Positions 32,360 to 60,955 of a DNA stretch of 64,000 bases are shown here, piece by piece (the first letter of the stretch is position 1; each line of letters starts with the position of its first letter). Both the position numbers and the translations under genes were made by a program. This DNA comes from Clostridia bacterium 41_269 (GTDB lineage Bacteria; Bacillota; DTU086). The notes beneath the pieces were generated by a model that worked only from the letters and a program-made list of their open reading frames with translations, searched no databases and was not told where the DNA came from. The stretch lies in contig LGEZ01000001.1 in assembly GCA_001508005.1 (NCBI GenBank), positions 52,392 through 116,391 on the forward strand, read 5' to 3'.

Positions 32360-32364
32360 GAGGG

Positions 32365-43899: not shown

Positions 43900-44405
43900 A
43901 GGGTATTGTAGAGGACCTTATTGGAATAACTTTGAAGCAGATTAGGTGTGTAAATGAGCTTATAAAGCTTGCAGAAGAAGAAACTGAAGCCCTTAAAAAG
44001 AATGATGTGCCGTTTCTTTCTAAGCTCTGCGTCAAAATGAATGAAGCGGCTCAAAAACTCTTGGAGCTTGAAGGGGAAAGGATGCAGGCTTGTGAAAAGC
44101 TTGCATCTTTTTTAGGTATTCCTGGGGACGCTCCATTCAGCGAGCTTAAAAAGGCTTTGTCCCAAAATGGCCAGGGTTCATTTGAAGAAATCGAGGAGCT
44201 GGTTGAAAAAACGGAGAGTTTGAAGCGGGCGTACGGCAGACTTCAGGATCAGAACAGACTTAACAGGCAGCTCCTTAAGCAGTCTTTGAGCTATATAAGA
44301 GGCCTTGAGGAAACCCTGGGTTTGCGAAAAGGGTCCATTTATGGAAAGGATGGGGAATACGAACGGATTTCAGAAGAGGGCACCCTCTTAAATAGGGAAG
44401 TTTGA
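43896..44405 (+). CDS. flgN: Flagellar export chaperone FlgN-like protein
   Basis: Position between flgM and flgK. Helical 169-aa protein, translationally coupled. Confidence 0.6.
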   Translation: MKGIVEDLIGITLKQIRCVNELIKLAEEETEALKKNDVPFLSKLCVKMNEAAQKLLELEGERMQACEKLASFLGIPGDAPFSELKKALSQNGQGSFEEIEELVEKTESLKRAYGRLQDQNRLNRQLLKQSLSYIRGLEETLGLRKGSIYGKDGEYERISEEGTLLNREV

Positions 44406-44421: not shown

Positions 44422-45951
44422 ATGACTTCGACTTTCAGCGGATTCAGCATATCTTTAAGGGCCCTTATGTCCCAAAAGCTCATGCTTGACATAGCGGCTC
44501 ACAACGTTGCCAACGCAAGCACCCCTGGCTTTACCCGCCAGAGAGGTGTATTGGAAACGACACCACCCCTTCCATATCCTTCCATTAGTAGTTCAAATCT
44601 GGTGGGGCAGATTGGCACAGGTGTAGATGTGGTAAGGGTGGAAAGGCTCAGAAATGAATTTCTCGATGTCCAGAGGAGAAAGGAGATCCACACGCGGGGA
44701 CAGTGGGCCATAAAAAGGGATACTTTAGAACAGATTGAAGTTATATTTTTGGAACCTACGGACACGGGTCTTAGTTCTCTTTTGAACGAGTTCTGGAGCA
44801 GCTGGCAGGAACTTAGCAAGAATCCCGAAAGCTTGGCGGTCAGGACCACTGTTAAAGAAACAGCTGCTGCCCTTGCAGACGCCATACGCCATACTTACCA
44901 GCAGCTTAAAGACTTGTCAGACGATATAGACAATATGATTAAAATAAACGTGCGGAATATAAATTCCTTGGCAACCCAAATTGACCGTCTTAACAAGCAG
45001 ATAAAGGCTGCAAAGGGTGCGGGTTTTGAACCCAATGATCTTTATGACCAAAGGGACAAACTGGTGGATGAGCTAGCTGAGCTCATTGATTTTAAATATA
45101 AAGTAAATGATGACGGCACGATGGACATTTATTTATATAACGAAAAGGATGAATCCTATTCAGCAAGGCTTGTGGATGGGATAGAAGGCCACACCAATAC
45201 CCTTAAAACTGCGGACTATACTTCGGGGAAAACAGTAATACTTTGGGATTCCTACATATCTGCAGAGCCGTCAGGAAGCACCCCAGCAGCGGGGGATGTT
45301 CTTGGCGTGAGTGACGATACTGATAAGAGGGCAATTTCCGACGGCAAACTTAAGGGTCTTTTTGATGCAAGGGATGTGCTTTTAAAAGGATACATGGAAA
45401 CTTTAAATTCTTTTGCCTTAGGGCTTATAAATGTTATCAATGAGTACCACAAAAACGGCTATGACCTAAACGGTAATGCCGGTGGAGAGTTTTTTTCCGG
45501 AACGGGAGCCACTGACATTACAATTTCAGATAACATAGAAAGTGACGTTTCAAGAATTGCTGCTGCGCTTTACAGTGAAACCATACCAGGCGACGGCTCA
45601 AATGCTCTTAGGATTGCAGAGCTTCAAAGCACAAGGCTTTTTTACGACAGCAGTGCGGGAGAGCTTCGTCTGCCGGGAGGAGGTGAAATGGGCAACACAT
45701 CCTTTGAGGATTTCTACAACAACCTTATTTCCAGCTTAGGCGTTGCCACAAACGAAAGCCAGCGCATGTTGGAAAACCAAGAAGCCCTTGTAGACCAGCT
45801 TAATAATTTGAAAGAAAACATCTCAGGGGTATCCATCGATGAAGAAGTGGCCTACATGCTTCAGTACCTAAGGGCTTATCAGGCTGCTGCCAGGTTTATG
45901 ACCGCCATGGACGAAATCCTCGATACTCTTATCAATAGAACCGCCGTTTAA
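44422..45951 (+). CDS. flgK: Flagellar hook-associated protein 1 FlgK
   Basis: N-terminal flagellar rod/hook domain (LMLDIAAHNVANASTPGFTRQ) and conserved C-terminus. 509 aa. Confidence 0.9.
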   Translation: MTSTFSGFSISLRALMSQKLMLDIAAHNVANASTPGFTRQRGVLETTPPLPYPSISSSNLVGQIGTGVDVVRVERLRNEFLDVQRRKEIHTRGQWAIKRDTLEQIEVIFLEPTDTGLSSLLNEFWSSWQELSKNPESLAVRTTVKETAAALADAIRHTYQQLKDLSDDIDNMIKINVRNINSLATQIDRLNKQIKAAKGAGFEPNDLYDQRDKLVDELAELIDFKYKVNDDGTMDIYLYNEKDESYSARLVDGIEGHTNTLKTADYTSGKTVILWDSYISAEPSGSTPAAGDVLGVSDDTDKRAISDGKLKGLFDARDVLLKGYMETLNSFALGLINVINEYHKNGYDLNGNAGGEFFSGTGATDITISDNIESDVSRIAAALYSETIPGDGSNALRIAELQSTRLFYDSSAGELRLPGGGEMGNTSFEDFYNNLISSLGVATNESQRMLENQEALVDQLNNLKENISGVSIDEEVAYMLQYLRAYQAAARFMTAMDEILDTLINRTAV

Positions 45952-45969: not shown

Positions 45970-47100
45970 ATGCGGGTAACCAACAACATGCTCACCACAA
46001 CGGTGCTTAGGAATTTGAACCGAAATCTAAAAAGGCTTAACACCTATATGGAGCAGCTTTCTTCGGGAAAAACCGTAAACAGGCCATCGGACAATCCCGT
46101 TTACGTATCCCGAATAATGCGCCTCCAGAGCATGATAAAGAATCAGGAAAAGTACCAGCAGAACATGGAAGATGCCCAGGGCTTTGTGGACATGTCTGAG
46201 ACGGCTTTGGGAAACCTAAGCGATATTTTGAACAGGACGAGGGAACTTACCGTATACGGAGCCAACGGCACCCTTTCAGAAGAGGATCGGGAAACCCTAG
46301 CGGCGGAAGTGGATGAGCTGATAAATGAGGTTGTGGAGGTGGCCAACAGCAGCTATGAGGGAAGATACGTCTTCGGCGGGCACAAAACCACAAAAGCGCC
46401 TTTTGTGCGGATTGGTGCAATTACCAGTGCAACGGTGAGCGGGAGCATTTCTGGTGTATATACTCTTACTTTTAGAGTTGATGGAACGGCGGTTTTAAGG
46501 GATTCTCAGAATAATGTCGTTGCCACGGCAGTTTACAATAATAATACAGCTGAAACTTTGGTTTTTAATGTGGCTGGAAGCCAGCTTTCTGTCGAAAAGG
46601 ATGCTTTGGACATAGCAGGATACATGTTTAGCCTTGAAATTGAAAATTCTAATGCTTTGGCTAGCGAAGTTGCCTATAGGGGAGATTCCGGCTACCTTGA
46701 ATGGGAGGTTGCCCAGGGGGTGACTATGTCCGTTAATCTCCCGGGGGACCAGGTTTTTTTAAGGGGTGGAGTATTTCTTGCTTTAGAGAAAGTTTTAAAA
46801 GCCCTTAGGGATAATAATGCACAGGAACTTTCGGGAAGCGCATTGCAAAAGTTGGACCAGGCCTCCGAAGGGATACTTTCTTCAAGGGCCGTTTTGGGCG
46901 CCAAAAGCAACAGGCTTGCCGTATCCATTGAAAGGGCTTCCCAGTTCAGCTTGAGCCTGACGGAAATTTTGTCAAAGATTGAGGATGTGGATCTTGCCGC
47001 TGCCAGCATGGAGTTTTCGACGGCGGAAAACGTATACAGGGCTGCTCTTTTCACGGGCACCCAGGTGCTTCTGCCCACACTTTTGGATTATCTGGGGTGA
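45970..47100 (+). CDS. flgL: Flagellar hook-associated protein 3 FlgL
   Basis: Flagellin-like N-domain (RVTNNMLTTTVLRNLNRNLKRLNTYMEQLSSGK...NRPSDNP) and C-domain. 376 aa. Confidence 0.85.
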   Translation: MRVTNNMLTTTVLRNLNRNLKRLNTYMEQLSSGKTVNRPSDNPVYVSRIMRLQSMIKNQEKYQQNMEDAQGFVDMSETALGNLSDILNRTRELTVYGANGTLSEEDRETLAAEVDELINEVVEVANSSYEGRYVFGGHKTTKAPFVRIGAITSATVSGSISGVYTLTFRVDGTAVLRDSQNNVVATAVYNNNTAETLVFNVAGSQLSVEKDALDIAGYMFSLEIENSNALASEVAYRGDSGYLEWEVAQGVTMSVNLPGDQVFLRGGVFLALEKVLKALRDNNAQELSGSALQKLDQASEGILSSRAVLGAKSNRLAVSIERASQFSLSLTEILSKIEDVDLAAASMEFSTAENVYRAALFTGTQVLLPTLLDYLG

Positions 47101-47106: not shown

Positions 47107-47568
47107 ATGAAAGTGGAAACCTCTCGCTTTGGCTGTATAGAAGTGGATGAAGATAAGATAATATATTTTCCGTGGGGCATCCCGGGTTTTGAAGATTTAA
47201 AAAAATATTTTCTTGTTCCTGTTAATGAAAATCCATTTTTTACATGGCTTCAGTCCTTTGATGATCCCAACGTTGCCTTTTTACTGGTTGATCCTTTTTT
47301 GTTTTTTGAAGGGTATGAAGTGGAACTTACGGAGGATGTTAAGAAGGAACTTGAGATTGAGGATCGAAAAGATATAATAATCCAGGCTGTCACCAATATC
47401 CCTAAAACAGGAGTGGAAAATGCCACAGCGAATTTAGTGGGGCCTATTGTTATAAATGTTAGGAAACGCCTCGGCAGGCAGGTTATCCTTCAGGATGTGC
47501 CCTACGGCATAAAACACCTTCTTTTTCCCAAGAAAAAGGAAGGGGACCGCAGAATTGCTGCCGGATAA
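47107..47568 (+). CDS. fliW: Flagellar assembly factor FliW
   Basis: DUF180/FliW sequence (IYFPWGIPGFEDLKKYFLVP...FLLVDPF), directly upstream of csrA. Confidence 0.85.
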   Translation: MKVETSRFGCIEVDEDKIIYFPWGIPGFEDLKKYFLVPVNENPFFTWLQSFDDPNVAFLLVDPFLFFEGYEVELTEDVKKELEIEDRKDIIIQAVTNIPKTGVENATANLVGPIVINVRKRLGRQVILQDVPYGIKHLLFPKKKEGDRRIAAG

Positions 47569-47882: not shown

Positions 47883-50800
47883 ATGAGAAGAAAGAGAAGC
47901 CGGCTGGAATCACTGGGTTTTTTTATTTTTTTAACTGTAGTTTCCTTGTTTTGTCTATTAAATTTTGGTCCTTTTTGCGCCTATGGGGAGGAAACCCTCA
48001 GCATCGTTTCTGTTACTCCAGATAAAGTCAGCAACGATGGGGGACAGATTATAACCATTAAGGGAACGGGCTTTATGACCGGAATGAAGATCTACTTCAA
48101 CGATGTGCAGGTGGGCCCCGGCAGTATCAGCATTAAACTCAGCAGTATAGGATATGATACGGCAGAAGTGGTGGCTCCTCCCGGTAATACGGGTTATGTG
48201 AAAATAAAAGTGGAAGATCCCTCCAACCCAGATAATTATGCCGTTCTGTTAAACGCTTTTTGGTATCAAAGCACCCCCACCATAACCGGCATAAGTCCAA
48301 ATTCCGGCTCCACTGTGGGAGGAACGGTCATAACCATAACGGGAAGCGAGTTTGGTGAAGCCGGTTCCATGGGAAACAGCATAGAACTGTACATCGGTTC
48401 TACGCGGGTTCAGAATGTTACACTTGTCAATTCCACAACCATAACGGCGGTTACTCCTCCTTCAACCTTAGGGCCAAAGTCCATAACCCTGATAAATGCT
48501 GACGGCGGTACCTGCACGGTTCCTTCGACTTCTGCCAATGCATTTACATATGTTCCCAGCAGCCCAAGCATTACATCGGTATCCCCTTCGTACGGACCCA
48601 CCCTTGGGGGCACTGAGCTTACAATAACCGGGCAGGAATTCAGCGAAAACGCCAAGGTTAAAATAGGTGAGCACTGGGCGCAGACGGTAACCTATGTAAG
48701 CAGTACAAAGCTCATTGCCACAGCTCCTGCTTCTGAAAATGTGGGATTTGCGGACGTTTTGGTGGAAAACCCTGACGGTCAGACGGCCGTATTGGACGAT
48801 GCCTTTGAATATATAGCGGTTCCGGTTGTACAAAATATCACTCCCAACTATGGTCTTCCCGGTGAAGACAGGACAAGCAATCCCGTCGTCATCACCGGAG
48901 CAAACTTTGACCCTAGTGGGGTTAATGTGTACTTTGGCGGAAAAGAAGCTCAGGTTAATCTCAGCACTCTTACCAGCACGAGGATAGAAATAACGAAGCT
49001 TCCGGACGTTACGCCCGGAACGGTGGATGTAAAGGTTGTTAATTTCAGGAATTCGAGAGAAGAATACACCTTAAAAAGAGGATTTACTTTTAAAACTCAA
49101 ACGAGTCAGCCCGAGATTTACAGCATTGATCCCAATTCTGGAAGCACCGAGGAATATACGAGGGTAACCATTAAGGGTAAGGAGCTTCTTACCGGGGCAA
49201 CACTGTACGTAGGCGGTGAGCCGGTTCCCCTTGACGATGCGGAGTTCATAAGCACAAGCGAAGTGAAGGTGACCATTCCCCCATCGTCCAAAACTGGTGC
49301 CAAGGATGTAAAATGGGTTAACTACGACGGCGGAGAAGATACTTTAGAAAGCGGATTTATCCACATAAGACCAGAGGAACAGGTAAAAATAACGAGCGTT
49401 ACGCCCAACAGGGGGCCCGAGGACGAGCATACGCCCATAACCATAAGCGGTGTGAACTTCATGGATCCAAATGATCCCGATTTTGTCAGCTGTACCGTTA
49501 CCATAGGCGACGTGCTCGTTTTGGATTTGGAGTGGGTTGACAGCAGGACTTTAAGAGCAAAAACGCCCCTTGGCTATGTCAGGGAAGGGGAAACGGAAAC
49601 TTCCTGGGACGTTGTCATCGTGCAGGTTTACAAAGACAGCGAAGGGAATGAGATAGTCCAGAAATACGTTTTTGCAAACGGCTTTACTTATGTGCTTCCG
49701 GGAAGCAACCCCACAATAGCTGAGGTTTATGATTACGAAACCTTTAGGAAGAGTCATATAACCGTTAATTCCGGTCCCCTCTCGGGAGGAAACAGGGCAG
49801 TCATTGTTGGTACCGATTTCCGCACCCAAGGGTCAACCCTTCCGAAAGTTGAATTCGGCACGGGTTACAGCTGGCGCGAAGCTCAGGTACTTCAGGTGAT
49901 AACCATTTCTTCGTCCCAGAGCGAGCCGGATTACGAAAGGGGAATTCCTGCATACGAGAGCGGTGTGAAGGAAATGGCGCTTGTTGTGGAAGTGCCTGAA
50001 GGTTTTTCCACGGGAAGCGTTGATGTTAGGGTAACCAACCCGGATTTGGGAACGGCAGTTCTTAAAAACGGCTGGATTTATAAGGTGTGCAGCCTCAACG
50101 TGACCGCCATCACACCGAACAGAGGTCCCGTGACGGGCGGTATCGTGGTGGTGATAAGCGGTGCCAACTTTACCGAAGATTACTCCCTCTGGGTCAAATT
50201 TGTTCACAACTATGGAGACGGTTCAACTGATACCACCGTTGTGGAGAACATTATCGAGATCAGGGACAGCGCTGTAAGGTTTTACCTTCCCAGAAGCATT
50301 GAGGGTTTAAAAGACGTAGTTGTTTACAACCGCTTTGGAGAGAGAACATTAAAGAACGCTTTTACCTACTATGCTCCTTTAAGCACCCCTTCCATTTCTT
50401 CTGTTACTCCCAGTTCGGGCTCTTCTCTGGGCGGGGACACGGTTGTTATAACTGGTGAGGACTTCAGGGAAGGGGCTGTGGTTACCATAGGCGGAAGGGA
50501 AGCCACGGTTGTCAATGTGACATGGGATACCATTGAAATAATAACTCCTTCCGGCACCCCGGGCTTAAAAGATGTGGCAGTGAGAAATCCCGACGGCGGA
50601 TATGTGGTGCTGAAGGAGGGATTTAAATATATAAGCAGTCCCGAAGTGATCTCCGTACAGCCTTCCGTGGTTAGCGCATCGGGAGGCACCATCGTGACCA
50701 TAAAAGGAAAGCAGTTTTACAGCGGGGCTTCCGTGTATTTCAAAAGAGGGGAAGCTTTACTTCAAGCTCCTGACGTAAAGGTTGCTGACGAGAATACTAT

Positions 50801-53800
50801 TATAGCAAGGGTTCCTGCCGGAGATACAGGGACCTACGATGTAATTGTGAGAAACGTAGACTATGATGTGGGCACTGGCTTTGGGGAAGGAGTTTTAGAA
50901 GACGGTATTACTTTTTATGAACCGCCGTCCCTTCTGCCTGAAGTTGAAGGGGTTTACCCCAATTCTGCCTCTGAGGGAGGAGGAATTCCTGCTGTTGTAA
51001 CGGGGCAGAATTTTCAGCCGGGAGCAGTGGTATATTTCGGTCTTGAAGAAGCAAGGGTTCTGGAATATTTAGGCAGTGAAAGCATCAAAGTGCTTGTTCC
51101 TTCTAATTCTGAAGGAGAGTATTACATTACGGTAACGAACCCTGATGGCGGAACGGGAGTATCTGAAAGTGCCCTTTTCACATACAAAAAGGCTGTGACC
51201 TATCCTGAAATTATAAGCATTTCGCCTTCCGCGGGAAGCGTTGAGGGAAGCACATTTGTGGTGATAAGGGGCAAAAACTTTCGCACTGGAGCTGTGGTTT
51301 ACTTTGGAAGCCGGGAGGCATCTTCTGTGGTCGTTTCCCTTGAGGATACATCTGCTGGAATATATAAGATTACCTGTTTTACGCCTCCGGGATCCGTGGG
51401 CTTCGTTGATGTTATTGTTATGAATCCTCCAAGTTCTTACGGTGTGGCAGTTTTTGAGGACGGCTTTGAGTACAGGAGGCCTGCCAGCAGTCCCAAAATA
51501 AACTCCGTTATGCCTCCCAGCGGTCCCACTACAGGAGGCACTAAGGTTACCATTAAGGGAAGCGATTTTAGGACAGGAGTTAAAATATATTTTGACGGAA
51601 TATTGGCCCAAAGCGTAACCCTTGTGGATTCGGAAACCATAACTGCAGTTTCTCCGGCTCACGGTGCGGGAAAGGTTGCCGTGACTGTGGTTAATTACGA
51701 TGGGGGTTCCGATACTTACGGCGACAGCGCCGATGAGCTGGGATTTACCTATGCGCTACCCGCAAGCAGTCCCGAAGTGCACTCTGTGGATCCCAAATAC
51801 GGGCCTTCCTGGAAGGAAACCTGGGTAACCATATACGGCTTGGATTTCAGACCAGGGGCTAAGGTTTACTTCGGCTTTTTGGAATCTTCCCAAGTGGAAT
51901 ACATTGACTATCAAACTTTGCGTGCCCTTGCCCCTGCCCAGCCGAAAAGCACTGTTGACGTTACTGTGGTGAACGAAGATTATGGGACGGGCACTTTAAA
52001 GAACGCTTTTACATACAGGAGCTCGGCTCCCGAGATTGAATCAATTGCTCCGGAATTGGGAGACAAAAACGGCGGATACGAAGCTGTTATATACGGCAGT
52101 GAGTTTATCGTTGAATATGATGGAAGCGGAGAAACTATAGTCCTGTGCCCAAGAGTTTACTTTGAGCAGGGGACATTGAGGGCTGAAGCTGAAGTTCTTG
52201 TGGGTTCGGATTCGCAGTCGCTTTTAATTGTGGTTCCTGCTGCCCCAGGTGGTATTATTGGCTATTACGATGTGAGGGTGGTAAATCCCGATGGATCAGA
52301 AGCTGTCCTAAGCAAAGGATTTAAATACACGGTTTCCGCAAGCAGTCCCACAATAACTGGAGTTGAACCTCAAAAGGGTATTGTTTTGGGCGGCACCCCC
52401 ATAAAAATTTACGGTTCCGATTTCAGGGGTGAGGCTTTGGTTTTCATTGGAGGAAAGAAAGCTTTAAACGTTGTTGTGGTAAGTGAAGGATTAATAAGAG
52501 CGGTTACTCCGCCGCACAGTGCAGGCAAAAAAGACATTACCGTTGTCAATTACGACGGTGGCCGCTATACATTGGAAGATGCCTTTGAGTACGGCATGCC
52601 TTTAAGCGAGCCCATAATAACAAAAATTGAGCCTTCCAAGGGGCCCAGCACAGGAGGAACAAAAATTACCGTCACAGGAAGGGATTTTAGAGCCAATGCA
52701 TCCCTGTACATTGGCGGAGAGCCCTGTACTGATGTAGTGGTTGTGGATTACAAAACCATTACGGCAGTGACTCCTCCAGGAGAAGTGGGTAAGGCAGACG
52801 TTATAGTAATAAACGAAGACCTGGGCACAGCGGTTCTTCCAGGAGGATTTACCTACATTTATGTAGAGCCTCCAGTAGTTGAATCCGTGATTCCAAACCG
52901 AGGGCCCACTACGGGAGGTACCGAAATCATCATATCAGGAAGTAACTTTAAAAAAGGTGCCGTGGTCTATATAGGGGAAGCAAAAGCCGAAGTGAGAGAG
53001 GTTTCTTCTGATAAGATAACTGCGGTTACTCCTGCAGGAGGTCCAGGCTGGCATGATGTGATTGTGATTAATACGGACGGGGGAAAAGGAGTTCTTGAGG
53101 ATGCCTTTTACTACTACGAGCCAAGGACGGAACCTAGCACACCGAGCTGGCTTAAAGCGGAAGCCTTCGACGAGCGGACGGTGAAACTTTCTTGGGGAGA
53201 GGCAAAATTTGCTAACTACTTTGAAGTTTACGTCAGGGAAAAGGGAGACAACATCTTTAGATTTGTCGATCAAACGAAGAATGACGTTCACGAGTACTAT
53301 GTTACGGGACTGAAGCCTGGTACCCTGTATGTTTTTAAGGTGAGGGCTGTCAATGAGCTGGGTATTTCCCAGTTTACAGATACCGCTGAAGCAAGAACAA
53401 AATCTGGTGATGCTGATGAAGAAGCTGAAGAGGATAAAGAGAAGGCTCAGGAAAGGGTAAGGATAGAACACGGCCAGAATTCGGTTTTTGTCATCATACC
53501 CGGTGATAAGGCTCTTAAAAGAGAGGACTATATCTTTGATTTCAGCGGTGCTTCATATTACGGTGTAAAAACTTTTGTGCTGCAGGTCAGCGCGGATGCT
53601 GCAGGGGATATTGCAAAGGAAGTGACTGTGAGACTCAGCGGTGCGGAAATTACATTGCCCCCTGTGCTTTGGAACCTTTCTGAAGTGAAGTCTTTAAAGA
53701 GTTCGGATAGAAAAAATGCTCTTATCCGATTTAGGGTGTCCGATGCGGGGTACAGGGATGTAGAAAGCGCCCTTTCGGTTTTGCCCAAAGGGGCAAAGAT

Positions 53801-54053
53801 TGCAGGTAGAGCCCTTGCCGTAAGCGTAGACGTATGGAACAGAGGAGTGGTTCTGAAGCCTGCTGTTTACCCTGCTTCCATAAAAGTATTGTTTAAGATG
53901 GCTTCAACTTCATATTCATATGGCAGCTCCCTTTCTATATTAAGGTACGATACGTCGGGGAGCTGGCGTTATGATACTCAAGCGGTTGCTTCAACCTCGG
54001 GCGTTTATACCTATACGAAAGTCCCGGCAACACTTCTTCCTGTTTACCGGTAG
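47883..54053 (+). CDS. Giant secreted cell-surface protein, 2056 aa. Signal peptide, about 18 tandem IPT/TIG (Ig-like) domains, one fibronectin type III domain and an acidic Glu/Asp-rich segment. No SLH or LPXTG anchor.
   Basis: The N-terminal signal peptide is MRRKRSRLESLGFFIFLTVVSLFCLL. A roughly 100-aa repeat unit of the form I-T/S-x-[IV]-x-P-x-x-G-P/S-x-x-GGT-x-[IV]-T-I-x-G-x-x-F recurs about 18 times. The FN3 domain is LSWGEAKFANYFEVYV...YVFKVRAVN. The gene is co-directional with csrA and only 42 nt downstream, with no terminator between. Confidence 0.8.
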   Translation: MRRKRSRLESLGFFIFLTVVSLFCLLNFGPFCAYGEETLSIVSVTPDKVSNDGGQIITIKGTGFMTGMKIYFNDVQVGPGSISIKLSSIGYDTAEVVAPPGNTGYVKIKVEDPSNPDNYAVLLNAFWYQSTPTITGISPNSGSTVGGTVITITGSEFGEAGSMGNSIELYIGSTRVQNVTLVNSTTITAVTPPSTLGPKSITLINADGGTCTVPSTSANAFTYVPSSPSITSVSPSYGPTLGGTELTITGQEFSENAKVKIGEHWAQTVTYVSSTKLIATAPASENVGFADVLVENPDGQTAVLDDAFEYIAVPVVQNITPNYGLPGEDRTSNPVVITGANFDPSGVNVYFGGKEAQVNLSTLTSTRIEITKLPDVTPGTVDVKVVNFRNSREEYTLKRGFTFKTQTSQPEIYSIDPNSGSTEEYTRVTIKGKELLTGATLYVGGEPVPLDDAEFISTSEVKVTIPPSSKTGAKDVKWVNYDGGEDTLESGFIHIRPEEQVKITSVTPNRGPEDEHTPITISGVNFMDPNDPDFVSCTVTIGDVLVLDLEWVDSRTLRAKTPLGYVREGETETSWDVVIVQVYKDSEGNEIVQKYVFANGFTYVLPGSNPTIAEVYDYETFRKSHITVNSGPLSGGNRAVIVGTDFRTQGSTLPKVEFGTGYSWREAQVLQVITISSSQSEPDYERGIPAYESGVKEMALVVEVPEGFSTGSVDVRVTNPDLGTAVLKNGWIYKVCSLNVTAITPNRGPVTGGIVVVISGANFTEDYSLWVKFVHNYGDGSTDTTVVENIIEIRDSAVRFYLPRSIEGLKDVVVYNRFGERTLKNAFTYYAPLSTPSISSVTPSSGSSLGGDTVVITGEDFREGAVVTIGGREATVVNVTWDTIEIITPSGTPGLKDVAVRNPDGGYVVLKEGFKYISSPEVISVQPSVVSASGGTIVTIKGKQFYSGASVYFKRGEALLQAPDVKVADENTIIARVPAGDTGTYDVIVRNVDYDVGTGFGEGVLEDGITFYEPPSLLPEVEGVYPNSASEGGGIPAVVTGQNFQPGAVVYFGLEEARVLEYLGSESIKVLVPSNSEGEYYITVTNPDGGTGVSESALFTYKKAVTYPEIISISPSAGSVEGSTFVVIRGKNFRTGAVVYFGSREASSVVVSLEDTSAGIYKITCFTPPGSVGFVDVIVMNPPSSYGVAVFEDGFEYRRPASSPKINSVMPPSGPTTGGTKVTIKGSDFRTGVKIYFDGILAQSVTLVDSETITAVSPAHGAGKVAVTVVNYDGGSDTYGDSADELGFTYALPASSPEVHSVDPKYGPSWKETWVTIYGLDFRPGAKVYFGFLESSQVEYIDYQTLRALAPAQPKSTVDVTVVNEDYGTGTLKNAFTYRSSAPEIESIAPELGDKNGGYEAVIYGSEFIVEYDGSGETIVLCPRVYFEQGTLRAEAEVLVGSDSQSLLIVVPAAPGGIIGYYDVRVVNPDGSEAVLSKGFKYTVSASSPTITGVEPQKGIVLGGTPIKIYGSDFRGEALVFIGGKKALNVVVVSEGLIRAVTPPHSAGKKDITVVNYDGGRYTLEDAFEYGMPLSEPIITKIEPSKGPSTGGTKITVTGRDFRANASLYIGGEPCTDVVVVDYKTITAVTPPGEVGKADVIVINEDLGTAVLPGGFTYIYVEPPVVESVIPNRGPTTGGTEIIISGSNFKKGAVVYIGEAKAEVREVSSDKITAVTPAGGPGWHDVIVINTDGGKGVLEDAFYYYEPRTEPSTPSWLKAEAFDERTVKLSWGEAKFANYFEVYVREKGDNIFRFVDQTKNDVHEYYVTGLKPGTLYVFKVRAVNELGISQFTDTAEARTKSGDADEEAEEDKEKAQERVRIEHGQNSVFVIIPGDKALKREDYIFDFSGASYYGVKTFVLQVSADAAGDIAKEVTVRLSGAEITLPPVLWNLSEVKSLKSSDRKNALIRFRVSDAGYRDVESALSVLPKGAKIAGRALAVSVDVWNRGVVLKPAVYPASIKVLFKMASTSYSYGSSLSILRYDTSGSWRYDTQAVASTSGVYTYTKVPATLLPVYR

Positions 54054-54076
54054 CGGCAAAATTATCTTCAAGGGAG

Positions 54077-56590
54077 ATGGGCAGGGTGAAAGCAAAGAAT
54101 TTTAAAGTCTTTTTCACGGCTTTTGTTTTACTTGCGATATTCTGGTGCGGGGAGTTTTTCCTTGAGGCAGAGGTTGCAGAAGGCACTTCATATACCCAGT
54201 ATAGAGGTGTAAGCTACGGAGAAAAGTACCTCTCTGCCATAAAGTTTAGGGACGTGGGAAGTCACTGGGCCAAGGTGCCTATATATCGCTCTGCTGCACA
54301 GGGCCTGATATTCGGATACGGCAGCGGGTATTTCCGCCCGAATTCTCCCGTTACTAGAGAAGAAGCTGCTGCCATGCTTGTGCGCTTAAAGGGAGTAGGC
54401 GGAGATGACCTCCAAAATAATGGGGGTACAGGGGGTTCATGGGCATCTCCCCATCTTCAGGTTGCCTTGGATGAGGGCATCATAACAGAGCAGGAAAAAA
54501 GTGCAATGGAAAAAAATCCGGGAAGATATGCCCAAAGACAGCAGGTGGCAGCTTGGGCGGCAAAAGTTCTTGAATTGGAGCCCGACTACAGCATAGGATA
54601 TCAGCTTCTCCGTTCCTTTAAGGACTGGCAGAAAATAACTTCGGAATACACTCCCTTTGTAGCCGCTTCTGTAAGGGAAGGGGTTTTTGCCGGCAGTGCA
54701 TCTGGCTACTTTAAGCCCAATGCTTCTATATCTAGGGGAGAGATGGCTGCGGTTTTGGACAGGCTGAGCCAACGACTGGCTGAAGATAGGGGGTTGGTTT
54801 TTGCTGAGGGCAAGGTAACGGGAAGCGAGGCGTATTGGGAGGAAACTCCATCGGGACGGAAAAAGAAGGTTGAAGTTATGGTGCAGAAGAGCTCCGGAGA
54901 AACGGTGCTCATAAAAAGCGGCGGAACTGACGGGGATTACCCCGTATACAGAGGAGGAAAGCTGGGACTCAGTGATCTGCTGAAGAGCGGGGATTACGTA
55001 AAAATGGTCCTCACGGAAAACGGAGAGGTGCTTTTCGTCGAGGTTTCCGCATCAGCCTCTCGGGCGCTTACGGGCACTTTTGTGGGGCTTGACCTTGACG
55101 GAAAGAAAATCTACATAAGGGATTTCCAAGGTAAAGATCTTGTTCTTCCCATTCAGTTGCCCCTGGGGGTTACCATAAACGGAATGGGGGTTGAGCCGCA
55201 GGACCTGATTCCCGGGCAGGAGGTTTCCCTAACCGTTAAAGGAGGGGCTGTCACGGCAGTTGCGGGAATCCTTGACAAGATTCCCGATATTTATGGTGAG
55301 AGCCGCAGGGAAGTGGTTGAGGGAGTTGTCAAAAATGTGAGCTCCTCCGGGGATGAGATAACCGTTGCCTCCGGAAACAGACAGCTGACTTTTAGAATTG
55401 ATTCCCGAACTGCCGTAATTAAGAGGGGAACTCCCTACTCTCCCAAGTGGATAAAAGCAGGGGACAGCGTCAAGGTACAAACGGTGGGCGGCGGATATGC
55501 TTCAAGGGTTGAAGTGTTTTCGGGTGAAAAAACGGCTGCAGGCATTATTAGGGGAAGAATTGAGGGTGTCAGCTCATCTTCGGGAAGGATTGTTTTAAGC
55601 GGCGTGGAAAGATATTTTTACGGCGGATGGTACGCTGACACGGGCTCCCTCGTTCTTAAAGTTTCACCCAATGCAGAGATTTACGATATAAGCGGGCGCG
55701 TAGATGTCAACTGGCTCGAGAAGTCTGCAGCGGGAAGGGAGATTTACGCTGTTATTGCTGAAAGCTTTGGATCGCCGGAAGCCCAGAGCATTTATGTAAA
55801 GAGCGGATACTCGGAAAGCAGAAGCGGACTTGTGGACGAAATTGACTTTTCTACTGCCCGTATGTACCTTGAAGACGGATTCGGCGGCATAATCATCGGT
55901 CCGCAGACTTCGGTGGTGCGAAACGGCAGGCTTATAAGCGTGGAAGATGTGGAGGAAGGGGCTTCCGTTTTTGTGGAAACCGACAGGGTTTCTGGAGAGG
56001 AGTACGGTGCCTTCATCCTTTGGGATGATTTCATACCGACAGGGTGGAGCTTAATAAGGGGTGAAATAGATGAAGTGGACGACGGAGAAATAACGTTGAG
56101 CTCCTACAGCTTATTTGACGACAATGATTGGGACGAGCCCAGTTCCTCTTCAAAAGATAGAGATCTTGAAGTTTCAACAGAGGCTGTGATCATCGACGCT
56201 GTAGATCCTCAAAACCCCAAAACACTGGAACCCGAAGACTTCTTCTACACCAGGTTTACAAGTGATTATGAAAACAAATTTGCCGTTGCTCTTGTGTACG
56301 ATGATCTCGTAAAGGGATTGGTCATTTTGGATGGTGAGCCTAGCGGTGATAGAACCAGCATCGGCGTGGTCAGTTCCGCTTCGGGCGGTAAAATAAATAT
56401 CGATAGGGTTAGGGACTGGAGCTCGCCCGTTGGGGAGTGGAAGGTAAACCGTTATTCCGTAAGCCTCAGTATAAAGGGGGCAGCCGTAGTGAGAAAGGGA
56501 GAGGTTTATGCAGGCACGGGTGTGCGCTCCGGAGACACCGTTTTCGTGCTTCATGATATGAACAGCGTTCATGTGGTATTCGTTCAGTGA
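54077..56590 (+). CDS. SLH-domain cell-wall-anchored protein (three N-terminal SLH modules plus repeated small beta-domains). The start may be GTG 54086.
   Basis: SLH motifs (FRDVGSHWAKVPIYRSAAQGLIFGYGSGYFRPNSPVTREEAAAMLVRL; ...ISRGEMAAVLDRL) follow a signal-anchor N-terminus. 837 aa. Confidence 0.75.
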   Translation: MGRVKAKNFKVFFTAFVLLAIFWCGEFFLEAEVAEGTSYTQYRGVSYGEKYLSAIKFRDVGSHWAKVPIYRSAAQGLIFGYGSGYFRPNSPVTREEAAAMLVRLKGVGGDDLQNNGGTGGSWASPHLQVALDEGIITEQEKSAMEKNPGRYAQRQQVAAWAAKVLELEPDYSIGYQLLRSFKDWQKITSEYTPFVAASVREGVFAGSASGYFKPNASISRGEMAAVLDRLSQRLAEDRGLVFAEGKVTGSEAYWEETPSGRKKKVEVMVQKSSGETVLIKSGGTDGDYPVYRGGKLGLSDLLKSGDYVKMVLTENGEVLFVEVSASASRALTGTFVGLDLDGKKIYIRDFQGKDLVLPIQLPLGVTINGMGVEPQDLIPGQEVSLTVKGGAVTAVAGILDKIPDIYGESRREVVEGVVKNVSSSGDEITVASGNRQLTFRIDSRTAVIKRGTPYSPKWIKAGDSVKVQTVGGGYASRVEVFSGEKTAAGIIRGRIEGVSSSSGRIVLSGVERYFYGGWYADTGSLVLKVSPNAEIYDISGRVDVNWLEKSAAGREIYAVIAESFGSPEAQSIYVKSGYSESRSGLVDEIDFSTARMYLEDGFGGIIIGPQTSVVRNGRLISVEDVEEGASVFVETDRVSGEEYGAFILWDDFIPTGWSLIRGEIDEVDDGEITLSSYSLFDDNDWDEPSSSSKDRDLEVSTEAVIIDAVDPQNPKTLEPEDFFYTRFTSDYENKFAVALVYDDLVKGLVILDGEPSGDRTSIGVVSSASGGKINIDRVRDWSSPVGEWKVNRYSVSLSIKGAAVVRKGEVYAGTGVRSGDTVFVLHDMNSVHVVFVQ

Positions 56591-56602
56591 TTGGGGTGGT
56601 AA

Positions 56603-58183
56603 ATGTTGATTTGTGCGCTGTCAAAGGTGAAAAAATTGGCGTCTTATGCTCTGATTTTCTTTATCGGAATTTATGCGGTTTTTCTCGGTACACCTGGAGC
56701 TTTTGCCGCGGAGGACCCCAGAAACACCGAAGGGGGAGTGTACAACGACAGCGAGTATCAGGAAATTCTTTTCATCACGGGTAAGCCAGTAATTCTTAAA
56801 GGCACCGTAAAGTCCAGCGGAGGAGCGGGACGCAGCGGCAGGGGCACTTATACGTCTTCGGTCAACTTTACTTTGGAAAATGCCGATGAGGGTATAAAAC
56901 TTACCCGCAGGATATCCTTCACAACCACGGAGGAGAAAAGGGACAGGCAAACTGTGACCGTGACGAAGGTTAATTCCTTTTCCGAGTCCATAAAGGTTGG
57001 GGAGCGAACCTACACCCTTAAAGATTTTACCTTCAGCAAATCCGTCATCACCGATGACAGACCTGCGGTGGACTACTTTTCTGGAAACTGGAGCGCCAGA
57101 AAGGTTTACGAAACCGACAAAGGTGCTGGGCAGCTTGTGGTGGATATAATCGGCGAGACCGTAGGCTACGACAGCTTCTGGGGAAGCACCGAAACCCAAA
57201 GGGTATCGGGGAGCCTGAACTTTGAGGGGAAGGTTACTGTTGGTGAAGCCGTGTATGAAGACGAGTGGGGTGGTACCTTTGCCTTTGACGCAACCTACAA
57301 CAGAATCAAGGAAGTTACCTATGAAGAAAACGATCCTCAGTACATAAGCTTTCCCGGCGGATTCGTTCTCACGGAAAACACCGACCACTACGTGAGGTAT
57401 ACTGCAAGGCTTCCCGAGTTTGACGAAAGCGGTATTTCTACGAGCGGATGGGAGCAGTATTCGGGCAGTTTGAGCCTGTCAGGTGCTCCCTCATACAAGA
57501 GGCTTCCTACTCACTACTTCAGGGATATGGGAAGCCACTGGGCAAGAAGCGATGCGGAACTGCTCTACGGTCTCGGAGTGCTGGACAGGGGAGAATATTT
57601 CGGTCCCACTGTGCCCATGACCCGTGGAGAATTTGCTCGCATGCTGGCAAGGGCGCTGGGGCTGGTTTCTTCGGATGAGGGAAGTGCACAGAACGGCAGG
57701 ACCGTTAAAAGAACCATAGGTGTGAGTCTTCCTTGGGGCGGATTCGGCGGAACGGCAGGCCGTGAGGAAGAGAAGCTTTTCCACGATGTCCCCAGCGACC
57801 ACCCCTATTACAGTGAAATTAAAGCCGTGTACGAAAGCGGCATCATAAAGGGTACGGGAAACGGTTATTTCTCTCCGGGAGAGAAGCTTACCAGGGCACA
57901 GGCTTTGACCATATTCATAAGGGCTCTAGGGTTTGACCACATTCCCCTTGCTTCGTACCTTCTGGATGCTTACAGGGATGCTTCCCAGATTCCCAAATGG
58001 GCTGTAAATTCCGTTTTTCTGGCAGCGGAAATAGGGCTGGTGGAAGGAAACAGTTACGGGTACCTCCTTCCCAACAGCGTCCTCACCAGAGCGGAAGCTG
58101 CTTCCCTTCTTACCAGGTTTATAACATACATGCAGAAGGATTTGAGGACAGAGTACAGGGACAGGCTGCTGGGCTACCGCTGA
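56603..58183 (+). CDS. Secreted protein with three C-terminal SLH modules
   Basis: Signal peptide (ASYALIFFIGIYAVFLGTPGAFAAE). C-terminal SLH motifs (FRDMGSHWARSDAELLYGLGVLDRG...TRGEFARMLARAL; FHDVPSDHPYY...TRAQALTIFIRAL; ...TRAEAASLLTRF). Confidence 0.75.
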   Translation: MLICALSKVKKLASYALIFFIGIYAVFLGTPGAFAAEDPRNTEGGVYNDSEYQEILFITGKPVILKGTVKSSGGAGRSGRGTYTSSVNFTLENADEGIKLTRRISFTTTEEKRDRQTVTVTKVNSFSESIKVGERTYTLKDFTFSKSVITDDRPAVDYFSGNWSARKVYETDKGAGQLVVDIIGETVGYDSFWGSTETQRVSGSLNFEGKVTVGEAVYEDEWGGTFAFDATYNRIKEVTYEENDPQYISFPGGFVLTENTDHYVRYTARLPEFDESGISTSGWEQYSGSLSLSGAPSYKRLPTHYFRDMGSHWARSDAELLYGLGVLDRGEYFGPTVPMTRGEFARMLARALGLVSSDEGSAQNGRTVKRTIGVSLPWGGFGGTAGREEEKLFHDVPSDHPYYSEIKAVYESGIIKGTGNGYFSPGEKLTRAQALTIFIRALGFDHIPLASYLLDAYRDASQIPKWAVNSVFLAAEIGLVEGNSYGYLLPNSVLTRAEAASLLTRFITYMQKDLRTEYRDRLLGYR

Positions 58184-58195: not shown

Positions 58196-58236
58196 AAAGA
58201 GCCCCGAAGTATTTTTTTCGTCGGGGCTCTTTTTTA
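58196..58236 (+). terminator. Rho-independent terminator ending the flgM...SLH transcription unit
   Basis: AAAGAGCCCCGA-agtattttttt-CGTCGGGGCTCTTT followed by TTTT. Confidence 0.8.
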
Positions 58237-58251: not shown

Positions 58252-58281
58252 TTGACATCGAACATATGTTCCCTGTATAAT
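58252..58281 (+). promoter_or_regulatory. Sigma-A promoter with an embedded LexA (Cheo/SOS) box
   Basis: TTGACA-N18-TATAAT. The spacer contains CGAACATATGTTCC (58259-58272), matching the Gram-positive LexA box consensus CGAAC-N4-GTTCG. Confidence 0.75.
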
Positions 58282-58320
58282 TGCTTTGGGAAGTCATATT
58301 AAGGGAGGGGGAGAAGAGGG

Positions 58321-58628
58321 TGAGGGGCAATACCCTTTGGGAGGGGCACAGGGTCGTAGTTTCCGAGCTCAGGCAGGGCATAGCCCGAACCAAAAGGGAG
58401 GCGGAGGCTGAAGACCCGCCCTTTCTGCCCGATGAAAGAATTGCGGAGATTGAGACGGTCTTAAGGGAAGCCGCCTCTGCCCAAAGGCCTGTGGAGGTAA
58501 CCTATTTCAACGGAGAGAAAAGGGTGAAAGTTTTGGCGAAAAAAGTTTCCTTTCCCGGAAACGGCGTGGTGCAGCTGGATGCCGTAAGGGTTCACTACAC
58601 CATGATAACCGATGCCCGCTTTTGTTAA
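58321..58628 (+). CDS. YolD-like protein (SOS-mutagenesis accessory family), orphan with no adjacent Y-family polymerase
   Basis: VRGNTLWEG...LPDERIAEIETVLREA...VEVTYFNGEK...VQLDAVRVHYTMI parallels the B. subtilis YolD layout (RGNIKW ... EE..L.E ... V.VKLYNG ... F.DIVSI). An AGGGAGGGGGAG RBS precedes GTG 58321. A LexA box lies in its promoter. Confidence 0.5.
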
Positions 58629-58698
58629 TGCCGTCGGGCAGGAATTTTGTGCACGGCATAGAAAAGGTAATCGTAATTAGATTTTGGGAGGGGATTTT

Positions 58699-59463
58699 TT
58701 GAATCTTCTTGAAGTAAGAAATCTGACCCTTAAAAAGGGAGAAAACGAAATACTCAAAAAGGTCAATCTGATCCTTGAACCTGGTGAAGTCCATGCGGTT
58801 ATCGGTCCCAACGGTGCCGGCAAAAGCAGCCTTGCCTATACCATTATGGGCCTTGAGGGTTACAGTCCAAAAGAAGGCAAGATTTTCTTTGAAGGAGAAG
58901 ATATCACAAACCTTCCCATAAACGAAAGGGCCAAAAGGGGCCTTACCCTTGCATGGCAGGAGCCCGCACGCTTTGAAGGTATTACCGTGGAGCAGTATTT
59001 AAAAATAAGCACCAACGGGTCCAAGCAGTACAGTTCCAGTGGTATTGAGCTTCCCCGGCTGACGCCCGAGGAAGCTCTTCTGAAGGTCGCCCTTAATCCC
59101 GAAAAGTACCTTAAGAGAAAGGTGGACAAAGGTTTAAGCGGCGGCGAAAGAAAGCGCGTGGAACTTGCATCCATCCTGCTCATGCGCCCCAAAGCCGTGA
59201 TTTTGGACGAGCCTGATTCGGGAATTGACACGGTGGCCATTGAGAAAATTTTTGAGATAATAGAGGAGTTTAAGAGACTCGGGATCGGGGTGCTTCTCAT
59301 TACCCACTCCCACAAAATGCTGGAAGCGGCTGACTGCGCTACCCTCCTTTGTTCCGGTTTTGTGGTCAAAACGGGGTCCCCTGAGGAAGCGGCGGAATAC
59401 TACAACGTCCGGTGCCTTCCCTGCCCCAGTGAAGTGTATCCCCAGGAGGAGGAAAAGATATGA
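58699..59463 (+). CDS. sufC: Fe-S cluster assembly ATPase SufC
   Basis: ABC ATPase with Walker A GPNGAGKSS, signature LSGGERKR and Walker B ILDEPDSGID. The SufC-typical N-terminus LLEVRNLTL follows TTG 58699 behind a GGGAGGGG RBS. Confidence 0.8.
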   Translation: MNLLEVRNLTLKKGENEILKKVNLILEPGEVHAVIGPNGAGKSSLAYTIMGLEGYSPKEGKIFFEGEDITNLPINERAKRGLTLAWQEPARFEGITVEQYLKISTNGSKQYSSSGIELPRLTPEEALLKVALNPEKYLKRKVDKGLSGGERKRVELASILLMRPKAVILDEPDSGIDTVAIEKIFEIIEEFKRLGIGVLLITHSHKMLEAADCATLLCSGFVVKTGSPEEAAEYYNVRCLPCPSEVYPQEEEKI

Positions 59464-60398
59464 ACGATTTTGAAAAAATGGTGGAAGCGTACGAAAGCTC
59501 AGGGGGACAGCCTGAAGCATTCAAGGACAGCGATGTTGCCCACCTGGTGGTTGCCGAAAACAGAGTCCTTGGGGCTCACCTTGTCCCGGGGCTGAACATG
59601 GACGTGGAAGAAACCGAAAAGGGGATAAGGGCGCTTTTGGTTGTTGAAGAGGGGGCGAAAATAAAGAAACCTGTTCACCTGTGCTTTGGGGTCCTCCCTG
59701 AAGAAGGAATCCAGCGGATAGAAATGCGGGTTGAAGTAAAGGACGGCGGGAGCGTATCCGTAACTGCCCACTGCGTTTTTCCCAATGCGGTTAAGGTAAA
59801 GCATCTGATGGATGCGGAAATAGTGGTTGGAAATAATGCCAGGTACGAATACCGAGAAACCCACTTTCATGGAAACTTCGGCGGCGTTGAGGTTATCCCC
59901 AGGGCGAAAATAGTCCTTGGGGAGAACAGCGCATTGAAGTCTTTCTTCGGTTTGCCGAAGGGAAGGGCAGGTGTGGTGGATATTGACTACGATGCCGAGG
60001 TCGGCGCCAATTCTGTTATGGAGCTTTTGGCAAGGGTGAACGGTTACGGAAACGACAGGATTAAGATCAGGGAAGCGGGCTGCCTGAAGGGCGACGGCTC
60101 CAGGGGGCTCCTTGAGAGCAAAATCGCCCTGAAGGACGAAGCCCGGGCTGAGGTTTTCAATGAGATTGTTGCCCTTGGCGCAAAGGCGTGGGGACACGTA
60201 GACTGCACGGAGATCATAAGGGACAGGGCCTTTGCCAAAGCCGTTCCCGTAGTGGACGTGCGCCACCCAGAAGCAAGGGTCACCCACGAAGCTGCCATAG
60301 GCGGCGTGAACAAGACCCAGCTGGAGACCCTCATGGCAAGGGGGCTTTCTGAGGAGGAAGCTACGGAGATGATCGTTCAGGGGCTTCTTCAGGGCTGA
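59460..60398 (+). CDS. SufB/SufD-family Fe-S cluster assembly scaffold protein (short form)
   Basis: The SufBD beta-helix C-terminal region is present. The gene is translationally coupled to sufC. 312 aa. Confidence 0.65.
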   Translation: MNDFEKMVEAYESSGGQPEAFKDSDVAHLVVAENRVLGAHLVPGLNMDVEETEKGIRALLVVEEGAKIKKPVHLCFGVLPEEGIQRIEMRVEVKDGGSVSVTAHCVFPNAVKVKHLMDAEIVVGNNARYEYRETHFHGNFGGVEVIPRAKIVLGENSALKSFFGLPKGRAGVVDIDYDAEVGANSVMELLARVNGYGNDRIKIREAGCLKGDGSRGLLESKIALKDEARAEVFNEIVALGAKAWGHVDCTEIIRDRAFAKAVPVVDVRHPEARVTHEAAIGGVNKTQLETLMARGLSEEEATEMIVQGLLQG

Positions 60399-60833: not shown

Positions 60834-60861
60834 TAAAGAATGGTTTTCCCCTTTCCGATAT
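60834..60861 (+). promoter_or_regulatory. Sigma-D/sigma-28 promoter for flagellin
   Basis: TAAA-N17-CCGATAT lies about 95 nt upstream of the flagellin ATG. Confidence 0.65.
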
Positions 60862-60914
60862 GAGAAATAGAGAAGCTTCTCTATGCCTTTCCCAGCGGCC
60901 GCGAGGAAAGGAAT

Positions 60915-60954
60915 CGGCATGGATGCCGAAATAAAAAATTCAGGGAGGAATGGG
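60915..60954 (+). promoter_or_regulatory. Candidate CsrA binding sites in the flagellin leader (GGA-loop hairpin plus a GGA-containing Shine-Dalgarno)
   Basis: CGGCA-TGGA-TGCCG hairpin with GGA in the loop (60915-60928), and AGGGAGGAATG at the RBS (60941-60951). The arrangement resembles the BS1/BS2 sites of the B. subtilis hag leader. Confidence 0.5.
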
Positions 60955-60955
60955 A

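Follow-up and report, generated by a model that had tools for sequence, protein, structure and literature searches.

The window analysed here is a stretch of 64,000 nucleotides (nt) from Clostridia bacterium 41_269 (contig LGEZ01000001.1, positions 52,392 to 116,391 of the forward strand). Directly behind a block of late flagellar genes it carries a three-gene cassette: a giant protein built of tandem IPT/TIG modules is followed by two proteins with S-layer homology (SLH) repeats, referred to below as P2 and P3. From promoter to terminator, the unit comprises the following features.

43525–43551, forward strand: sigma-28 (FliA/SigD-type) promoter, TAAA-N15-GCCGATAA, 5′ of flgM, read as TAAAGTTTTTCTTATGTGTGCCGATAA
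43591–47840, forward strand: late flagellar block flgM-flgN-flgK-flgL-fliW-csrA, each gene identified by its Pfam family
43591–43899, forward strand: flgM (Pfam FlgM)
43896–44405, forward strand: flgN (Pfam FlgN)
44422–45951, forward strand: flgK (Pfam FlgK_D1)
45970–47100, forward strand: flgL (Pfam Flagellin_N/C)
47107–47568, forward strand: fliW (Pfam FliW)
47351–47378, forward strand: sigma-70-like site within fliW, TTGAGA-16-TATAAT, 11/12 in a consensus scan
47577 or 47601 (start) to 47840, forward strand: csrA (Pfam CsrA)
47883–54053, forward strand: giant open reading frame (ORF), 2056 amino acids, from the ORF list
54077–56590, forward strand: P2, 837 amino acids; signal peptide, N-terminal SLH region (residues about 55–235), then repeats (240–837)
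56603–58183, forward strand: P3, 526 amino acids; signal peptide, N-terminal barrel domain, C-terminal SLH triplet
58197–58236, forward strand: intrinsic terminator, an 11-bp GC-rich stem with a U-run, fold z = −2.4, which closes the unit

The chemotaxis genes cheW-cheA-cheB, also on the forward strand, lie 5′ of a 150-nt gap that contains the sigma-28 promoter. A scan of the whole window for TAAA-N14-16-GCCGATAW returned this match alone, against 0.05 expected by chance, in keeping with the perfect sigma-28 promoter at 43525 proposed in the initial annotation. The giant ORF starts 42 nt after csrA. Promoter and terminator scans of this gap found neither, and folding of the three intergenic gaps does not exceed that of shuffled sequence; ORFs, scans and folding thus agree with the earlier claim that no terminator intervenes. 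The gaps of 23 nt between the giant and P2 and of 12 nt between P2 and P3 hold for the ORFs as listed, but the true start of P2 is probably the GTG at 54086 (834 amino acids, matching the NCBI call), favoured because its Shine-Dalgarno spacing is better, and this would widen the first of these gaps to 32 nt. Terminator-like matches within the ORFs are weak and not above chance (24 versus 21.5 in shuffles), and the hairpin at 58197–58236 was again found to be the first convincing terminator after P3. Having no promoter or terminator of its own, the cassette would be read through from the flgM promoter to this hairpin. The sigma-70-like site inside fliW could add a second, sigma-A-driven transcript of csrA, giant, P2 and P3. 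A candidate CsrA site in the csrA–giant gap, marked by GGA motifs, was dropped because the motifs are not kept in the related locus L004 and the structure is not significant. Recent horizontal acquisition of the cassette was likewise rejected, its GC content being the same as that of the flanking DNA.

The giant protein is divided as follows.

47883–47987, forward strand: Sec-type signal peptide, residues 1–35 (MRRKRSR..., cleavage near AYG/EE), from the translation
48003–53120, forward strand: 18 tandem IPT/TIG Ig-like modules, residues 41–1746, by Pfam TIG and a custom hidden Markov model (HMM)
53136–53390, forward strand: fibronectin type III domain, residues 1752–1836 (Pfam fn3, E=7.8e-10)
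53400–53468, forward strand: acidic linker rich in D, E and K, residues about 1840–1862, by composition
53469–54050, forward strand: conserved, non-acidic C-terminal domain (CTD) of about 195 amino acids, from an alignment of 19 giants

Pfam TIG matches the protein in 16 stretches (E=7e-188) and the purpose-built HMM resolves 18 modules which, together with the fn3 match, bears out the earlier description of about 18 TIG modules and a fibronectin type III domain. The acidic tail of that description is not upheld: the acidic segment is a short linker, found in all cassette giants, and the protein then ends in the conserved CTD. If each Ig-like module contributes about 4 nm, a figure of our own, the extended fibre is estimated to measure about 65–75 nm. 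Its length near 2000 amino acids is kept across genera, which suggests that length matters.

The CTD has no match above threshold in Pfam, NCBIfam or PDB sequence searches, and a profile search for homologues returned none. Over all loci described below, an HMM of the CTD matches solely the C-termini of cassette giants, and the domain is proposed as the docking module of the protein. The signal peptide is the sole hydrophobic 19-residue window in the giant; no SLH repeat, transmembrane segment or C-terminal hydrophobic window was detected, and no LPXTG-like motif after residue 1292. The giant is therefore without a wall anchor of its own, as previously stated, and anchoring by sortase was rejected on the last two grounds.

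A signal peptide and SLH repeats, as expected of SLH proteins, are found on both P2 and P3. In P2 the SLH region is N-terminal (Pfam SLH, E=4e-25); two repeats score individually and a degenerate middle copy was seen by eye. The claim that SLH triplets sit at opposite termini of the two proteins holds in full for P3, with three C-terminal repeats, and for P2 in the form of two scoring repeats plus the degenerate copy. The remainder of P2, residues 240–837, consists of about 6–7 mutually similar small beta-barrel repeats with weak similarity to DUF5666/TOBE, beyond which searches of Pfam, NCBIfam and PDB sequences gave nothing above threshold. A public record labels P2 'Mg chelatase, cobalamin biosynthesis protein CobN', a name to which Pfam and NCBIfam lend no support and which looks like a misannotation.

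P3 falls into two parts.

56708–57517, forward strand: P3 N-domain, 12-stranded meander beta-barrel, residues about 36–305, by AlphaFold2
Residues 306–526 of P3, forward strand: SLH triplet (Pfam, three stretches, E=1e-27; TRGE, TRAQ and TRAE motifs)

The N-domain (270 amino acids) was modelled by AlphaFold2 from 24 sequences as an up-down meander of 12 long strands, with a predicted local distance difference test score (pLDDT) of 90.8 and a predicted template modelling score (pTM) of 0.85. The full-length model, from 109 sequences, reached a pLDDT of 90.3 and a pTM of 0.86, with the SLH helices above 90 in pLDDT. The closure of the barrel and the face that points inward we infer from the model. 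Five polar residues are invariant in the N-domain (E19, R67, Q81, E93 and D116, in N-domain numbering). Neither Pfam, NCBIfam nor PDB sequence searches gave a match to it above threshold, Foldseek against the PDB gave the barrel no significant match and no enzymatic homologue at significant score, and word-indexed searches with the P3 N-domain and the C-terminal part of P2 returned one relative and the query itself. An exhaustive HMMER search gathered 181 representative clusters related to the N-domain, with 47 scoring below 1e-30, and a C-terminal SLH region is present in 109 of 110 full-length members of the family. On a MAG contig (metagenome-assembled genome; L003, 650–900), an in-frame TGA closely follows a plausible ATG of the P3 homologue, the gene call of which is about 85 residues short; an assembly error or frameshift is probable.

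A 12-stranded meander beta-barrel is a fold otherwise seen in outer-membrane proteins. P3 might on this ground be pictured as a porin or tether embedded in an unrecognised outer membrane, an inverted counterpart of OmpM, with the whole cassette linked to that membrane. In the family alignment, however, 10–40% of residues are charged on both faces of almost every strand, and mean hydropathy stays below +1 in all strands but one, which argues that the barrel has no lipid-facing belt; it is probably water-exposed. The carriers Neomoorella, Alkaliphilus and Geosporobacter are, moreover, what we take to be classical monoderm genera, and the barrel, as said, has no significant Foldseek match in the PDB. 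OmpM and SlpA of diderm Firmicutes, Deinococcus and Thermus (PMC10628300, PMC9388160) resemble P3 in carrying SLH repeats and a meander beta-barrel on one polypeptide, but in P3 the order is inverted, with the barrel N-terminal and the SLH repeats C-terminal, its 12 strands are polar-faced and no coiled coil is predicted. P3 thus shows neither the N-terminal SLH, coiled-coil stalk and C-terminal lipid-belted barrel of the OmpM/SlpA type, nor the 12-stranded outer-membrane barrel and passenger on one polypeptide that define autotransporters and inverse autotransporters. An outer-membrane location was rejected on the polarity of the strand faces, and an outer-membrane-linked cassette is very improbable indeed.

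The distribution of the cassette was established by a locus scan of a genome collection with an 8-sequence alignment, which yielded 29 loci in Clostridia (numbered with the prefix L); a metagenome scan added 10 further loci. Cultured carriers are Neomoorella sulfitireducens, Geosporobacter ferrireducens, G. subterraneus, three Alkaliphilus species, Natronincola peptidivorans, Anaerovirgula multivorans and two Anoxynatronum species, and many metagenome-assembled genomes (MAGs) from digesters and oil reservoirs also carry it. A P2 homologue lies directly 5′ of P3 in 29/29 genome loci, and the two are adjacent in 10/10 metagenome loci. Their stop and start codons are within about 20 nt of each other or overlap in most loci, and full-length P2 homologues (at least 750 amino acids) are all collinear when aligned. 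A giant TIG protein of 1468–2122 amino acids is encoded 5′ of this pair in 19 genome loci, in fact at every locus with enough upstream sequence save four. P2 and P3 are the conserved core of the cassette, and the giant is its usual third member, marked by the cassette-specific CTD. That P2 and P3 are the core and the giant is at times missing, that P3 carries a barrel and that flagellar location and sigma-28 signal differ in their spread (see below) are points that go beyond the initial annotation.

Three further genes were noted near the cassette. An S41 C-terminal processing peptidase with PDZ and PG_binding_1 domains is encoded directly 3′ of P3 in 12 loci (L011, L012, L014, L016, L017, L019, L020, L022, L025, L026, L029 and L030), and pyrG usually comes next; cassette proteins could be substrates of the peptidase. 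About 4–8 kb 3′ of P3, six loci (L014, L017, L019, L020, L025 and L026) encode a protein of about 970 amino acids with N-terminal SLH, Big_5 and a weak match to SWM_repeat, a 'putative flagellar system-associated repeat'; it may be the S-layer protein. The product of the gene just 5′ of the stand-alone cassette of L010 (758–1786) is small and combines cohesin, Big_5 and dockerin domains, so that its host has cellulosome-type surface modules beside the cassette.

The initial annotation had proposed a coupling to flagella, which would have been refuted had homologues never occurred near flagellar genes. The closest relatives do carry the cassette inside late flagellar operons, in three positions. 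The order flgK-flgL-fliW-csrA-[cassette]-(sufCD)-flagellin is found in the window and in L004, L035 and L036; in L005 (Neomoorella), L033 and L034 a sigma-28 promoter precedes flgL-[cassette]-fliW-csrA-flgN-flgK; and L006 has flgK-flgL-[cassette]-flagellin. Junctions between flagellar genes and cassette as tight as those in the window occur in L004, L005, L006, L033 and L035. In MAGs of the Thermoanaerobacterales, the cassette adjoins mbl-flhO-flhP and the gene for a rod-binding protein. The Alkaliphilus, Geosporobacter and Natronincola group and several MAGs have housekeeping neighbours instead (S41 peptidase, pyrG, argS, spoIIE, tilS and pta-ack).

These stand-alone cassettes carry sigma-28-type promoters of their own. 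Perfect TAAA-N15/16-GCCGATAA sites lie 5′ of the cassette in L010 and L013, where the neighbours are housekeeping or sporulation genes. Just 5′ of the first cassette gene, L021 has TAAA-N16-GCCGATAT, and L024, L011 and L022 have TGAA-N16-G(C/A/T)CGATA. With the background taken from all loci, the strict motif occurs in 5/19 upstream regions against 1 per 52 kb (binomial p 2e-9) and the relaxed motif in 8/19 against 1 per 18 kb (p 1.5e-12), p values that are overstated, the lineages being related and two of the matches (L025 and L026) overlapping a terminator. In an alignment of upstream regions from eight genera, DNA that has otherwise diverged keeps three invariant islands: a sigma-A promoter, TTnACA...TGnTATAAT; TGnCGATA, about 40 nt ahead of the start codon; and the ribosome-binding site. 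The invariance of both promoter islands makes stand-alone cassettes appear to be under dual sigma-A and sigma-28 control, and the 11/12 site within fliW may have the same role in the window as their sigma-A promoter. As judged from these gene orders and promoter sequences, membership of the cassette in the sigma-28 (late flagellar) regulon is well supported; its flagellar location is lineage-specific, while the sigma-28 signal reaches further.

Beyond the terminator, the slot continues as far as flagellin, with the following features.

58252–58281, forward strand: sigma-70 promoter, 12/12, directly 3′ of the terminator, serving the next gene (YolD-like)
60834–60861, forward strand: flagellin's own sigma-28-type promoter, TAAA-N16-TCCGATAT, read from the sequence, with CCGATA at 60855
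60950–62221, forward strand: flagellin (Pfam Flagellin_N/C), the far edge of the late-flagellar slot

Between the cassette and flagellin (58252–60398, forward strand) the YolD-like gene is followed by a sufC/sufD-like ABC pair, and then, on the opposite strand, by an acylphosphatase gene; the YolD-like gene of L003 has as its partner a Y-family polymerase gene on the other strand. Beyond the window, past flagellin, lie adhE, flaG and fliD. The late-flagellar region thus includes unrelated genes, and position alone is therefore weak evidence of a flagellar link.

On this ground the cassette could be taken for a general S-layer-associated adhesin or wall cluster with no flagellar tie, inserted neutrally into the variable slot between csrA and flagellin and read through incidentally. 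The yolD, sufCD-like and acylphosphatase genes of the same slot would be its companions, the housekeeping neighbours (S41 peptidase, pyrG, argS) of most loci, in the Alkaliphilus, Geosporobacter and Natronincola groups, would be expected, as would the conserved upstream sigma-A promoter, and the probable S-layer gene (SLH and Big_5) close by in six loci fits as well. Such an insertion does not readily explain why sigma-28-type promoters are enriched at stand-alone cassettes, perfect in L010 and L013 and with an invariant −10 island, nor why late flagellar operons of at least three different gene orders have retained the cassette; in the window, moreover, neither terminator nor promoter separates it from csrA. 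We regard neutral insertion as rather improbable.

The same gene orders admit a closer tie to the flagellum. P2 and P3 might form a collar or bushing round the rod or hook at the level of the wall or S-layer, a monoderm counterpart of accessory rings, with the giant arrayed around the base of the flagellum as a corona or in the manner of a sheath. The cassette lies between flgL and fliW within the operons of Neomoorella-type loci, the rod genes flhO/flhP and the gene for the rod-binding protein adjoin it in L015, L018 and L032, and its sigma-28 promoters span lineages. The tight coupling of P2 and P3 is expected of subunits in one complex, and the invariant polar network of the P3 barrel could be an assembly module. 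However, in the established flagellar hierarchy basal-body accessories are normally early-class genes and not of the sigma-28 late class, and stand-alone cassettes are driven also by a conserved sigma-A promoter. The rod or hook is far wider than one 12-stranded barrel, whose oligomerisation would have to be assumed; a fibre of about 2000 amino acids is not obviously required; and Pfam and NCBIfam show no similarity to known flagellar families. An accessory of this kind is possible, if unlikely.

The account that we favour, and would hold about as readily as doubt, is that of a conserved surface cassette of the sigma-28 regulon in Clostridia that use S-layer or SLH proteins, providing a wall-held fibre with a surface role that depends on the flagellum. 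The giant, P2 and P3 would be exported via Sec, and P2 and P3 would bind the secondary cell-wall polymer through their SLH triplets to give a wall-bound complex. The giant, with no anchor of its own, is proposed to be retained non-covalently by P2 and/or P3 through its CTD, for which the polar beta-barrel of P3 is a candidate socket; we infer this tethering, which fits the strict synteny and the cassette-specific CTD. As the cassette would be expressed at the same time as the filament and the hook-associated proteins, the fibre layer most likely serves flagellum-dependent surface behaviour, by analogy with the TIG-repeat protein CmoA (see below). Candidate roles are surface contact or lubrication, cell–cell cohesion during surface movement and the attachment of partners. 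No csaB gene, for a pyruvylated secondary cell-wall polymer, is present among the annotated ORFs of the window, the whole genome not having been searched.

The closest precedent for such a system is CmoA of Paenibacillus sp. NAIST15-1, a secreted protein of 1064 amino acids with an N-terminal vWFA domain and 8 IPT/TIG domains (PMC5072692). Its gene lies 3′ of yvyC-fliD-fliS, with which it is apparently co-transcribed, and is co-induced with flagellin; CmoA is associated with the cell surface, surrounds the cells, acts extracellularly in movement driven by flagella and is needed for movement on hard agar (PMC5072692). Like CmoA, the giant is a Sec-secreted tandem IPT/TIG protein encoded after late flagellar genes. 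The CmoA gene follows fliS rather than csrA or flgL, and occurs only in Paenibacillus and its near relatives. The earlier view that the arrangement is without precedent thus stands for the cassette itself, which is undescribed, but not for a secreted TIG protein that apparently shares a transcript with late flagellar genes. A precedent for SLH proteins in flagellum-dependent surface behaviour is SlhA of Paenibacillus alvei, 1335 amino acids with a C-terminal SLH triplet, loss of which abolishes swarming with flagellation intact (PMC3776848). SlhA differs from the cassette in being a single protein; neither a barrel domain, a giant TIG partner nor a flagellar-operon location is reported for it.

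Two further systems bear on the proposed anchoring and regulation. In Clostridium thermocellum, the SLH-anchored cellulosome scaffoldins SdbA, OlpB and Orf2p hold CipA. The proposed likeness is that SLH proteins bound to the wall polymer hold, non-covalently, a very large modular partner that has no anchor; the CTD, the P2 repeats and the P3 barrel are unrelated folds, and regulation of the cassette is predicted to be flagellar. Pfam detects neither Cohesin nor Dockerin in the giant, P2 or P3, and anchoring by this pair of domains was rejected. The autolysins LytC, LytD and LytF of Bacillus subtilis are secreted, wall-bound and sigma-D-dependent. They provide a parallel in being non-flagellar wall proteins made from TAAA-N15-GCCGATAT promoters along with late flagellar genes, but they are peptidoglycan hydrolases with other wall-binding repeats, and no hydrolase domain was detected in the cassette proteins.

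Several observations weigh against the favoured account of a flagellum-dependent, wall-held fibre. The giant is absent, despite enough upstream sequence, from four loci (L013, L023, L025 and L026), so that the core function needs no fibre in cis. Embedding in flagellar operons is seen solely in the clade closest to the window and may reflect a single ancestral placement that was then rearranged. Several of the Alkaliphilus-type sigma-28 sites have unusual −35 spacing, and the sigma-28-like site of L025 and L026 is doubtful because it lies inside the argS terminator hairpin. Since the sigma-A promoter of stand-alone loci is conserved, expression is probably not exclusively flagellar, and both co-transcription and sigma-28 dependence are predictions from sequence. 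The comparison with CmoA was made by domain make-up: CmoA has the vWFA domain, for which Pfam gives no match in the giant at E<=0.01, it has no FN3 or CTD, and SLH partner genes are not described for it, whereas the giant has 18 TIG modules, FN3 and the CTD.

The four loci in which P2 and P3 occur without the giant would also be accounted for if the cassette were a module of the sigma-D regulon for remodelling the wall or S-layer. The P3 barrel would then bind or process a wall component for filament emergence or cell separation, and the giant would be secondary cargo. It is established that sigma-D regulons include wall-bound autolysins (see also PMC3865298), the invariant polar residues of P3 (E19, R67, Q81, E93 and D116) are compatible with a binding or catalytic site, and a wall-binding S41 peptidase is encoded directly 3′ in 12 loci. 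However, Pfam, NCBIfam and PDB searches give no hydrolase, amidase or transglycosylase signature, the barrel fold is without a significant enzymatic homologue, and the string of small beta-barrels in P2 is typical of structural proteins. We give this explanation little credence.

The wider surroundings of the unit are also rich in motility and surface genes. A complete Tad/Flp-type pilus locus lies just 5′ of the chemotaxis and flagellar genes (29703–36867, forward strand), with an A24 prepilin peptidase, TadE, a TadG-like protein, RcpC/CpaB, a response-regulator–ParA-like ATPase, a T2SSE ATPase and two T2SSF proteins. A FapA-like flagellar assembly protein is encoded at 24226–26097 and a DegS/DegU two-component pair at 27457–29251, both on the forward strand; these join the Tad, che and flagellar genes in a large motility and surface neighbourhood. 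The flagellin leader (60834–60949, forward strand) contains several GGA motifs, one of which overlaps the Shine-Dalgarno sequence, a pattern expected of translational control by CsrA/FliW. Further 5′ (5928–13170, forward strand), an AddB/AddA helicase-nuclease pair, with HflX and a TPR protein 5′ of it, is housekeeping and unrelated to the cassette.

Searches of the accessible literature turned up no account of the cassette or the P3 family, and none of flagellar accessories linked to SLH proteins in Clostridia or of such structures in Firmicutes. That a late flagellar regulon can include a secreted protein of TIG repeats, and that SLH repeats serve as anchors, is already known. The new features are the conserved design of three genes, the breadth of its distribution, the portability of its sigma-28 promoter, a CTD specific to cassette giants and a polar porin-like barrel fused to SLH repeats. 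It is tempting, if speculative and on balance unlikely, to go further and see in P2, P3 and the giant a new flagellum-associated envelope structure, anchored by SLH repeats in S-layer-bearing monoderm Clostridia and assembled with the filament, in which the soluble 12-stranded barrel of P3 acts as socket for the CTD. Barrel-plus-passenger systems would then have an analogue based on the wall, possibly a relic of the SLH-barrel tethers of a diderm ancestor.

The P3 family, with about 180 clusters, combines a confidently predicted polar porin-like barrel with SLH repeats, a context for this fold that merits a solved structure. If the cassette is truly under sigma-28 control, many anaerobic Clostridia have within their late flagellar regulon a dedicated surface apparatus not characterised before, and the precedent of CmoA would be extended from Paenibacillus to a broad, conserved system of three components. 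The cassette would then offer a handle on how flagellated, S-layer-coated Gram-positive bacteria couple swimming to contact with surfaces and partners, with relevance to biofilms and syntrophic consortia.

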